This document shows, piece after piece, positions 38,001-41,000 of a DNA stretch of 64,000 nucleotides. A program made the translations under genes and the position numbers. The stretch is from Podarcis filfolensis (taxonomy: Eukaryota). The stretch lies in NCBI GenBank assembly GCA_964270895.1, contig OZ185438.1, one strand, 5' to 3'. The notes under the pieces were generated by a model, which had not been told where the DNA came from, did not search any database, and saw only the letters and a program-made list of their open reading frames with translations. Every line of letters begins with the position of its first letter. Within the stretch, counting starts at the first letter, position 1.

Positions 38001-41000
38001 ATGATGTTCCACCTCGGCTCTCACCACCTCCTCCAGTTGCCTCAGTCTTGCCGAATATGAAGTAAGTTTTATTTTAAAGTTAAAAATACTGCTTACAAAG
38101 TATGAGGGAAAAGAAAGTTGGCTTGATTAAGTTAACAAATTAAATTTCTGTTAAAACTAAAATGTACCTTGTCTAAATAAAAAATTAAAAAATAGTCCAG
38201 TAGCGCCTTATAGACCAACTAAGTTTGTTCTGGGTATGAGCTTTTGTGTGCATGCAGAGTTCTTCAGATACACCGAAACAGAAGTCACCAGACCCTTATA
38301 TAATACCCAGAACAAACTTAGTTGGTCTCTAAGGTGCTACTGGACTATTTTTAAAAAAAATTATTTCGACTGCGTCAGACCAACACGGCTACCTACCTAA
38401 ATCTATACCTTGTCTGTGTGTGATTTTAAAACACCCTAAAAAGATGCATATTTACAAGAAACTGGGAATGAATTTCCTGCTGGAGTAATATGAAATGAAA
38501 AATCAGTATGCTCTAGTTCCTCCAAATCCCATTGTGGGACAATGTGTCAATTATACAAGAGATGAGCATCATTCTTTGGTCAAGTTCTGGAAAAGCATGG
38601 ATTTGGTGGCGCATACGACAGGGGTGTTGTAAAAACCAGAATTAGCATGTGGTGGAAATGGGAATTTTGCCTCTCAAGGAGATACTCTAAAATATGAAGA
38701 GACCTGTCAGAGCTACTCTGCTTCTTCCCCTACTCCCAGTTCATTGTGATAGAGGAAATAAGCATGTTAGCAGTTCATTTTTTATATTTTGTTGAAGCAG
38801 CTCCCCAGGAGGCATTTTTGCCAGGAGGAAAAAACCCACCAAATGTATTCTATGCCCCATTCGATTAGATCCTATGGTTTGCTTCTCATAATTGAACAAG
38901 AAATACACTCTTCCCCACCCCCATCCTTTATTTCATAGAAAGATGCAGCCCAGCCTCAGATACTAGCCAAAGGCAAATGGGAACTTAGGGTAAATGCATA
39001 CTAATGAGCCCAAGAAACCGCTTCTTTCAAAGGAGTAATAATGAAGTGTTTTCTTGGGTTCATTAGTATGCTTTCCCTGCCTTCTAATGGTCACAGTTTT
39101 TATCTTGGTTTCCTACTGGTCATAATGCGGCATGTACATTCTTTTATTGTGCACATTTGTATTGAATTAATATAAAGTCAATGCATCATGTGTGGAATGT
39201 GTTCTGTGTTTAGGTTATTGTTCTTGGTAACCTCTTACGATACTAATATTATGCTGTGTTTCCAGATGTTCTTTGTTTTAACTTCTTGCTTTGCTGACCC
39301 AGTAGCAGGCTCTCAGAACATGATACTTCCTCATAAATAGCAAAAGTGTTATATAATAGTGTAGTGGTAGCGTAACAAGTGTCAGCATACATAGGTTAGT
39401 AGTTGCAAGAAACAGCTTTTTGCTATATGTTTGTTGCCTTGTAAGCTGGATGTGCCATGCTGTTTAAGCACAGCAGATCCTGTTAATGGCAAACAAACAC
39501 TTTCCATGAGCTTTTACTCATTGTAAAGCTTTGGAAGATGGAATGTTCCTTTTCAGCTGATTGGAAAACAATTAACATTTCCAGGGCAAACTATATGATG
39601 TGACTCTCTTGTGGAACTGTGGAACTTTAATATGCTTAGAAGTCATTGTATTGGCTTAACATTATTGAGTGCAATCAATCAATCAATCAATGCTGGTTTG
39701 TTTATTGATATGTTGCCCTTAATAGGTTTTTTGAAGAGTAGGATATAAATGCTTAAAATAATTAGGAGTACATTTTAAAGCATACAACATTTCTTGACAT
39801 GTTTATTAATAGCATTGTAAAATTAGCCATATCCATTAATAATATTTTATGGCTATTGTAACTTAGACGGAAATTCAAAAGACTGGTGCAAATAGATTAG
39901 TAGGGAGATTTGATGAGGTTTCAAAAGCTATTTGCAGAACATGGGAGTCACCTTTAAATAAACCAGTCCTACATGGTTAAGGTCACAATCCTAGACCTAC
40001 TTACCTGGGAGTAAGTCTCACGGAGTTCCATAAAGCTTAAAGCTTCCTTCAGCATAGTTGTGGGTAGGATTGCAGCCTAACATATCAATGTATGCCAGGA
40101 AACTCAGTGAGATCCCATCAGATAAATAAGAGGCTTTAGTAAGCCTCTTTGAGTTCATTAACAATAAGATCATTTGATGGGTTCAAAGTTAAGTTAATTT
40201 GGATGTACCAAATTGGATTGAGTGAACTAAGGTGGGTAATTCCCCTGAAGTAAAAATACACTAGATTTTAAGACAAAAATTAATCTATTCAGATGCAATA
40301 GTCAACCTCATTTAAGGAAGGAAAATGAGGATTCAACATGGTTTAAACTAAGTCCAGAGAAATGGAAGGGCTTTAGGAACACACAAAGCTTTATCCTGTG
40401 CTCCTGGTTTTGTGAGTTAGCAACATTAAGTTTAAAATTATGCTAACACTTTTAGCTTTGAATATTTAGTTGGGGGACAGACAAGAGGCAGAAACCTCTT
40501 TGTTTGAATATATGATGTGCTTTGGCTCCCTCTACAGAAGGTGGTTAAATATTGCACTGCAGGAATATTTAAATTTCAGATTCTCATCTTCTACTGAAAA
40601 TCCATTTTCTGTTACTGTCAGTTAAATTTCTGCTTCACATTTTTTAAATGTCTTGAGTTCTTTTAACTGACTTTCTTCTTCTTTTCTTCTTCAAACTTTG
40701 GAGTATGTTTAATATATGTAGAACTCTCACTCTACTTGGCTTTTACTCTCTTAACTTCCCCATAATGGCCAGGTTGAACATGTGGAATCACCTTACACAG
40801 TTTATGTAGTGCATTGAATGAAGTGTAATAGTTAAAACAGATATCTGGAACCCACCCTGCACAGAGGATGGGAAGAAATTTGAGTGGAAAAGCCATTGAT
40901 AGGAAACAACTAAGCATTTCCTATTTTACCCTTCCCTAGTTCTTTTCCACCCAAAATGGCTGTTGCTTGTCTTTTTCTTGAATCAGGCTTTCTTAAACTT

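Follow-up and report, generated by a model that had tools for sequence, protein, structure and literature searches.

The window, a stretch of 64,000 nucleotides from contig OZ185438.1 of the Podarcis filfolensis assembly GCA_964270895.1, carries on its minus strand a likely inactive hammerhead ribozyme of a Neptune-type Penelope-like element. The motif lies in a two-arm insertion that is antisense within an intron of a CBL-family gene, and the short copies of its family are likely derived from a capped RNA that begins with stem I (its first base being position +1) and had not been cut; we regard this combined reading as probable. The occurrence of hammerheads in the pseudo-LTRs of Penelope-like elements is already known, reptiles included (PMC4209133), and the window copy itself is ordinary, as it is one of thousands, dead, and antisense. 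The hint of something new comes at the level of the family, where many copies begin at the first bases of stem I and almost none begin at the cut site. A literature search, which did not extend to most subscription journals, Repbase, or Fig. S2 of PMC11167929, found no published report of a capped start at stem I.

The initial annotation had read the motif as a minimal hammerhead with a stem I, a CUGANGA box, a palindromic stem III and a UC cleavage site, and the 38 nt that run from 38271 to 38234 are identical to that reading, letter for letter (Table 1). Stem I, the palindromic stem III (AGCT), the CUGANGA box (CTGAAGA) and the NUH site ending in C17 are all present in the window copy. The state of the remaining positions was judged against the 47 arms, out of 100 family arms examined, that contain the whole motif free of indels. 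The window copy differs from the family at three places, namely G12A and the two G-to-C changes in stem II. Motif position 27 (38245) is G in 35 of the 47 arms and A in 12, and the C preceding it is T in five; A at position 27 together with T at the preceding C is the pattern of CpG decay, in line with the origin from a GAAA box that had been suggested for the AAAA box. The two substitutions that had been described as breaking stem II also stand out from the family, with G at position 13 (38259) in 46/47 arms and at position 15 (38257) in 45/47, while the C of the window is found in 0/47 and 1/47, respectively.

The biochemical literature offers a measure of this damage. The G12A change alone has been found to slow cleavage more than 500-fold in minimal hammerheads and about 10^6-fold in full-length hammerheads (PMC2553840). 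The G10.1-C11.1 pair, which is conserved in minimal hammerheads (PMC4209133), reads C-C in the window copy, leaving three of five physical pairs in a stem II that no longer counts as paired. When the hammerhead fold is imposed, the predicted energy is +0.1 kcal/mol for the window copy versus -6.0 kcal/mol for an intact copy. The three changes and the predicted fold indicate that the window hammerhead is likely inactive, which agrees with the earlier description of this copy as dead; it is likely non-catalytic and at most adds a hairpin to the host intron. No hammerhead family was matched in an Rfam scan of 36000-41000, in which the best row (RUF6-5) reflects the long hairpin only, and a second intact hammerhead that could act as a dimer partner was sought across the window and is absent.

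Table 1. Features of the insertion, its hammerhead motif and the adjacent host exon (window coordinates).
Feature	Position	Strand	Basis
Host exon, proline-rich, EEYDVPPR peptide	37967..38061	+	reading frame; probable bounds from CAG and GTAAGT
Target-site duplication, left copy, 10 bp	38165..38174	+	exact repeat
Left arm: pseudo-LTR, tail-less, spanning -31 to the A/T tract with the hammerhead between	38175..38302	-	alignment to RT/EN-bearing copies
Inverted repeat, 53 bp, 94% complementary	38185-38237 / 38303-38355	.	self-comparison and predicted fold
Decayed minimal type I hammerhead	38234..38271	-	sequence reading and family counts
Stem I, GTAT/ATAC, 4/4 pairs	38271-38268 with 38237-38234	-	
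CUGAAGA box	38267-38261	-	
Stem II region	38259-38246	-	
Two G-to-C changes breaking stem II, one at the conserved G10.1-C11.1	38257..38259	-	47-arm comparison
AAAA box in place of GAAA	38245-38242	-	
G12A (general base lost), CpG-type change, also in 12/47 sampled arms	38245	-	arm alignment and PMC2553840
Stem III, palindromic AGCU	38242-38239	-	
Cut site, C17 the last base before the cut	38238/38237	-	
TATA box TATATAAG; stem I begins 31 nt after its first T	38295..38302	-	sequence
Right arm: begins at the first base past the cut site (+35), ends in a ~40-nt tail	38303..38405	+	sequence and alignment
Target-site duplication, right copy, 10 bp	38406..38415	+	exact repeat

The insertion itself is 231 bp long (38175-38405) and consists of two head-to-head arms that are predicted to form an extended hairpin once transcribed into the host pre-mRNA (-91.6 kcal/mol for the insertion). 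The left arm is 86-92% identical to the pseudo-LTRs of copies that carry the reverse transcriptase (RT) and endonuclease (EN), and the right arm is ~78% identical to these copies, placing the window insertion in an older subfamily. The tail of the right arm (about 38362-38405) matches the opening part of the element's reading frame. The TATA box probably belongs to the promoter of the element. The insertion point lies 114 nt into the intron that follows the proline-rich exon, and a Cbl_N2 domain is encoded on the plus strand at window positions 21346-21507, one of three such genes in the genome. Together, the domain and the exon place the hammerhead in an intron of a CBL-family gene and antisense to it. 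The initial annotation had named that gene CBLB; the family and the orientation stand, and the exon peptide makes CBLB the probable host gene. A PDB search with the exon peptide returned nothing. Elsewhere in this part of the window are short inverted-repeat elements, probably MITE-like, at 38993-39074 and 37220-37321 (35-bp and 33-bp arms), as well as a SINE-like repeat at 37600-37830, similar sequence to which is found beside several of the loci fetched (L026, L055).

It is conceivable that such a hairpin has been exapted by the host, for example through an effect on splicing or editing of the neighbouring exon, as the 53-bp repeat begins ~120 nt from the 5' splice site. However, a similar inverted layout is found at 36 of 87 sampled loci and the window copy has decayed like a neutral one, making exaptation extremely improbable.

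The family to which the window copy belongs is abundant and its ribozyme is largely preserved. The genome contains 3,218 candidate relatives of the window insertion, 3,530 sites identical to a 27-mer that lies 3' of the hammerhead, and 5,839 exact matches to the intact 35-letter motif; since the backwards control of the last gave 0 matches, the motif is not a product of chance. The intact motifs are divided 2,903/2,936 between the genome strands, a count that has no bearing on orientation within genes. The core is intact in 29/47 arms and every stem II position is complementary in 35/47, so that the family, judged also by the G at position 27, possesses both the GAAA box and the paired stem II that had been expected of it. 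Between subfamilies the flanks drift and the core is unchanged except at N7 and N17; these are free positions, and the constancy of the rest suggests that the core is under selection in the source elements. The pseudo-LTRs of L252, L253 and L255, members of a young lineage with open frames, have CUGACGA for CUGAAGA, a change at the free position N7. In an intact copy the sequence of stem II (corresponding to window 38259-38246) is a perfect 14-nt palindrome, for which a homodimer of -30.6 kcal/mol is predicted, giving two RNAs a second possible site of pairing besides stem III.

Longer copies extend upstream into the end of a GIY-YIG frame and then into RT (L120). A 910-codon frame is present in five of the seven long regions fetched, and these five full-length frames, one of them without a start codon, are 99.3-99.8% identical to one another, supporting the recent activity that had been proposed for the family. 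The 910-aa frame of L251 matches RVT_1 above the cut-off (E 5e-12), has YIDD at residue 551, and contains the CX4CxxC linker CNKPRCQLC at residue 770. Its GIY-YIG match falls just below the curated cut-off (E 3e-4, 21.6 bits versus 22.6), and that of an older copy lies above the cut-off (E 9e-6); a Pfam search with a 199-aa piece of the RT thumb gave nothing. In L251, L252, L254 and L255 the frame is flanked by hammerhead-bearing pseudo-LTRs, confirming the anticipated linkage to a Penelope RT/GIY-YIG reading frame. The family thus has the marks of an EN+ Penelope-like element, including an RT and C-terminal GIY-YIG frame, flanking hammerhead pseudo-LTRs, an inverted truncated copy and a tail. 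A CX2-5CxxC linker between RT and EN is a mark of Neptune and Nematis (PMC8557442); the family is probably Neptune-type by this linker, which is shared with Nematis. An inverted partner accompanies 49 of 100 arms, and 42 of 100 have a tail. Clusters of near-identical copies at about 40.1-42.8 Mb of contig C19 of this genome (G000; eleven 792-aa frames) and at C1:88,000-257,000 (eight like insertions) are probably segmental or subtelomeric duplications.

As the right arm of the window insertion starts at the cut site, the 5' ends of the family were mapped. The arms were an unbiased sample, the first 100 hits encountered along contig C1 with the 27-mer downstream of the hammerhead, representing 87 loci, with ends called to 1-3 letters. 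Twenty-five of the 100 arms have their 5' end at 0 to +3, 46 are spread over +4 to +47, 21 begin upstream and 8 begin at +48 or later. The excess at 0 to +3 over the roughly one arm per position from +4 to +47 has a Poisson p of 4e-12 if arms are taken as independent, which arms of one locus are not. More than half of the arms that reach +3 stop there (25/46), and seven of the 100 are called at position 0.

The cut site offers a very different picture. It is spanned by 83 of the 100 arms, and a single arm begins at +35, with a shared word at its junction. Genome-wide there are 16 ends at +35, compared with 37 at +33 and 21 at +37, or ~57, ~74 and ~53 after correction for flank letters; no enrichment at +35 over its neighbours is found. 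The patterns used for these three positions require two non-element letters before the end, and about one quarter of the 16 rows at +35 are internal deletions, with similar rows in both controls, none of which were removed. By comparison, a letter foreign to the element precedes +1 in 1,972 arms across the genome, although this count comes from a looser one-letter test and the ~40-fold gap over the cut-site counts is therefore approximate. The cut-site footprint that the window's right arm had suggested was consequently rejected.

These distributions bear directly on the possibility that the ribozyme cuts the template before insertion, with the right arm of the window as a fossil of that cut. 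The right arm does begin exactly at +35, counter to an uncut template, but its junction can also be read as slippage on a shared ATA, and neither the sampled arms nor the genome-wide counts contain the ends that a cut template would leave. Furthermore, the Anolis element PAc inserts unprocessed RNA in vitro (PMC11167929). A cut template is highly improbable and is largely refuted for this Podarcis family. With many ends at +1 and almost none at the cut site, copies were likely made from uncut RNA. It should be noted that cut RNA which cannot be inserted would leave no footprint, and the lack of ends at +35 is therefore no proof that the ribozyme never cuts.

A start of the RNA at +1 is not the only way to produce such a pile-up. 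The RT could fall off, fold back or switch strand at the edge of stem I, aided by the GTAT/ATAC repeat and the 14-nt palindrome, in which case +1 would be a structural or microhomology stop and no RNA end. Many +1 junctions do connect to an inverted arm by brief stretches of shared sequence or contain small fragments of the motif that were copied again, and an inverted partner is common among the sampled arms. However, solo arms that are joined directly to host DNA also begin at +1 to +3 (L072, L084, L088, L124, L149, L150), and the RT would meet the 3' side of stem I first. Additionally, a structural stop predicts neither the excess of unexplained G before +1 nor the 31-nt spacing of the TATA box, both described below, and this explanation appears unlikely. 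At four loci (L289, L194, L196, L276), short fragments of the hammerhead's first ~10 nt stand in a row ahead of +1, copied again as if the RT, on reaching the template end, had primed anew several times. Another locus, L210 (G000:C1:49350472-49351265), contains three tandem 85-nt units that run from +1 to the A tract with single-G joints, forming a retrozyme-like mini array.

An untemplated G at full-length 5' ends has been read as a copied cap in L1 and SVA (PMC4859970). Among the first 100 matches listed in the present family, the letter before +1 is G in 59, A in 28 and C in 13. Ninety-four of these ends were examined, and removal of 12 with repeated flanks and 2 with continuing element left 80 non-redundant ends (G 48, A 25, C 7). 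A generous 6-letter test found that the letter could be explained by element or target sequence at 56 of the 80, and the putative cap signal therefore rests on the other 24, of which 16 have G, 5 have A and 3 have C (p 2e-4 against base composition, by a rough classifier). Among the loci collected, the TATA box of older copies precedes +1 by 31 nt (59 cases, some counted twice). Counting against a promoter role, the box of the youngest subfamily, TATATAGA, is weaker and precedes +1 by 33 nt (55 cases), yet that subfamily still piles up at +1.

It was also considered whether +1 lies behind a 3' splice site, such that copies derive from spliced RNA. A pyrimidine tract and CAG are present (TTTCAG, two letters before +1), and the intron of the Drosophila virilis Penelope ends at helix I (PMC4209133). 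Splicing would leave a shared upstream exon; instead, the sequence beside the 7 arms called at 0 and the 80 ends at +1 is either unrelated or an inverted arm, and no splice joint occurs there among the RNA joints listed. A splice-site origin is very unlikely and was rejected. Four RNA runs from 2026, chosen by their species label and compared with a young copy, yield fragmented data dominated by host read-through, with 87-90% of reads entering unlike sequence. No pile of molecule starts is seen in these runs at +1 or at the cut, in libraries that are unable to show starts. Among the matches listed, loose read ends fall at 2778-2781 (+1 = 2780) in two of the runs, and a few reads are joined to 2780 through G or AG.

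Taken with the capped-start reading, these observations suggest a mechanism similar to that of PAc in several of its steps. First, a TATA promoter in the upstream pseudo-LTR would start a capped RNA at +1. Next, the element's protein would nick both strands of the target DNA, and cDNA would be primed inside the RNA at one of two sites, the A/T tract or the tail, as PAc does in vitro. Priming in the first pseudo-LTR would copy the 85-125 nt up to the cap and give short solo hammerheads, while priming in the second would run into the frame and give longer, randomly truncated arms such as the left arm of the window. Two cDNAs joined head to head would produce the inverted layout. The ribozyme, which is intact in source elements and so likely cuts, may act late or as an off-switch that removes the capped first 34 nt, not in preparation of the template. 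We lean towards the view that the solo minimal hammerheads of this genome are no random truncations but full cDNAs covering the initial 85-125 nt of a Neptune transcript that is capped, with the ribozyme uncut and serving as a cap-proximal off-switch.

Comparison with known systems identifies both shared and distinct features. The motif resembles the minimal hammerheads of metazoans, which have been reported in Penelope-like pseudo-LTRs of turtle and snakes, in being type I with a 4-bp stem I, one unpaired base between 9 and 10.1, a G10.1-C11.1 pair, a long stem II, a palindromic stem III and thousands of mostly solo copies (PMC4209133). In contrast to these, the window copy is broken at G12 and G10.1, and the family is set apart by the perfect 14-nt palindrome of its stem II. 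Published minimal hammerheads of metazoans show no cleavage as monomers and weak cleavage as dimers, and their solo motifs have been taken as probably truncated elements, with cutting and circular templates proposed (PMC4209133, Cervera and De la Pena 2014); unlike this proposal, the 5' ends of the Podarcis family cluster at +1 with an extra G, not at the cut.

The closest biochemical comparison is with PAc, a Poseidon element of Anolis carolinensis (Frangieh et al. 2024, PMC11167929). Both are squamate elements with a pseudo-LTR hammerhead, a tail that corresponds to the start of the frame, two classes of 3' end, insertion on both strands and no sign of ends at the cut site. In vitro, both strands of the target are nicked by the PAc protein, with priming inside the RNA at either of two sites. 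Elements with a mutated hammerhead insert as well as the unmutated ones, RNA ends at the cut site were not found, and the Anolis hammerhead needs the element's protein to cut (PMC11167929). PAc belongs to the Penelope/Poseidon clade and, in contrast, the Podarcis family has the Neptune-type cysteine linker and a frame that starts ~100 nt after +1 rather than inside stem II; no transcription start is mapped in the PAc study (PMC11167929). The order of RT, CX2-5CxxC linker and C-terminal GIY-YIG is that of Neptune EN+ elements, as are the partial tandems, the inverted 5'-truncated copy and the 30-40-bp tail at one end (Craig et al. 2021, PMC8557442). Like the animal non-LTR retrozymes, the short copies are protein-less, hammerhead-bearing derivatives of pseudo-LTRs, and the three-unit tandem of L210 resembles them (Li, Clavereau and Pollet 2026, bioRxiv 10.64898/2026.07.22.740005). 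Unlike retrozymes, the short copies are without the upstream TATA region, and the window insertion has two inverted arms and one hammerhead with no tandem array. The TATA box before +1 also differs from the TATA-less internal promoter of the D. virilis Penelope (PMC2377424).

The earlier proposal that intact sense copies could cut host transcripts is not supported, as the family has no genomic footprint of cutting and the cleavage described in the literature is weak or protein-dependent. With its intact frames, its mapped likely start and its very young age, this vertebrate family does make the in vivo role of Penelope hammerheads testable, between a cut-and-circle model (PMC4209133) and the finding that cutting is dispensable in vitro (PMC11167929). 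If the proposed mechanism is true, it would explain the abundance of solo minimal hammerheads in animal genomes, and the genome would hold an in vivo record that preparing the insertion template is not the task of the ribozyme, contrary to the cut-and-circle model.
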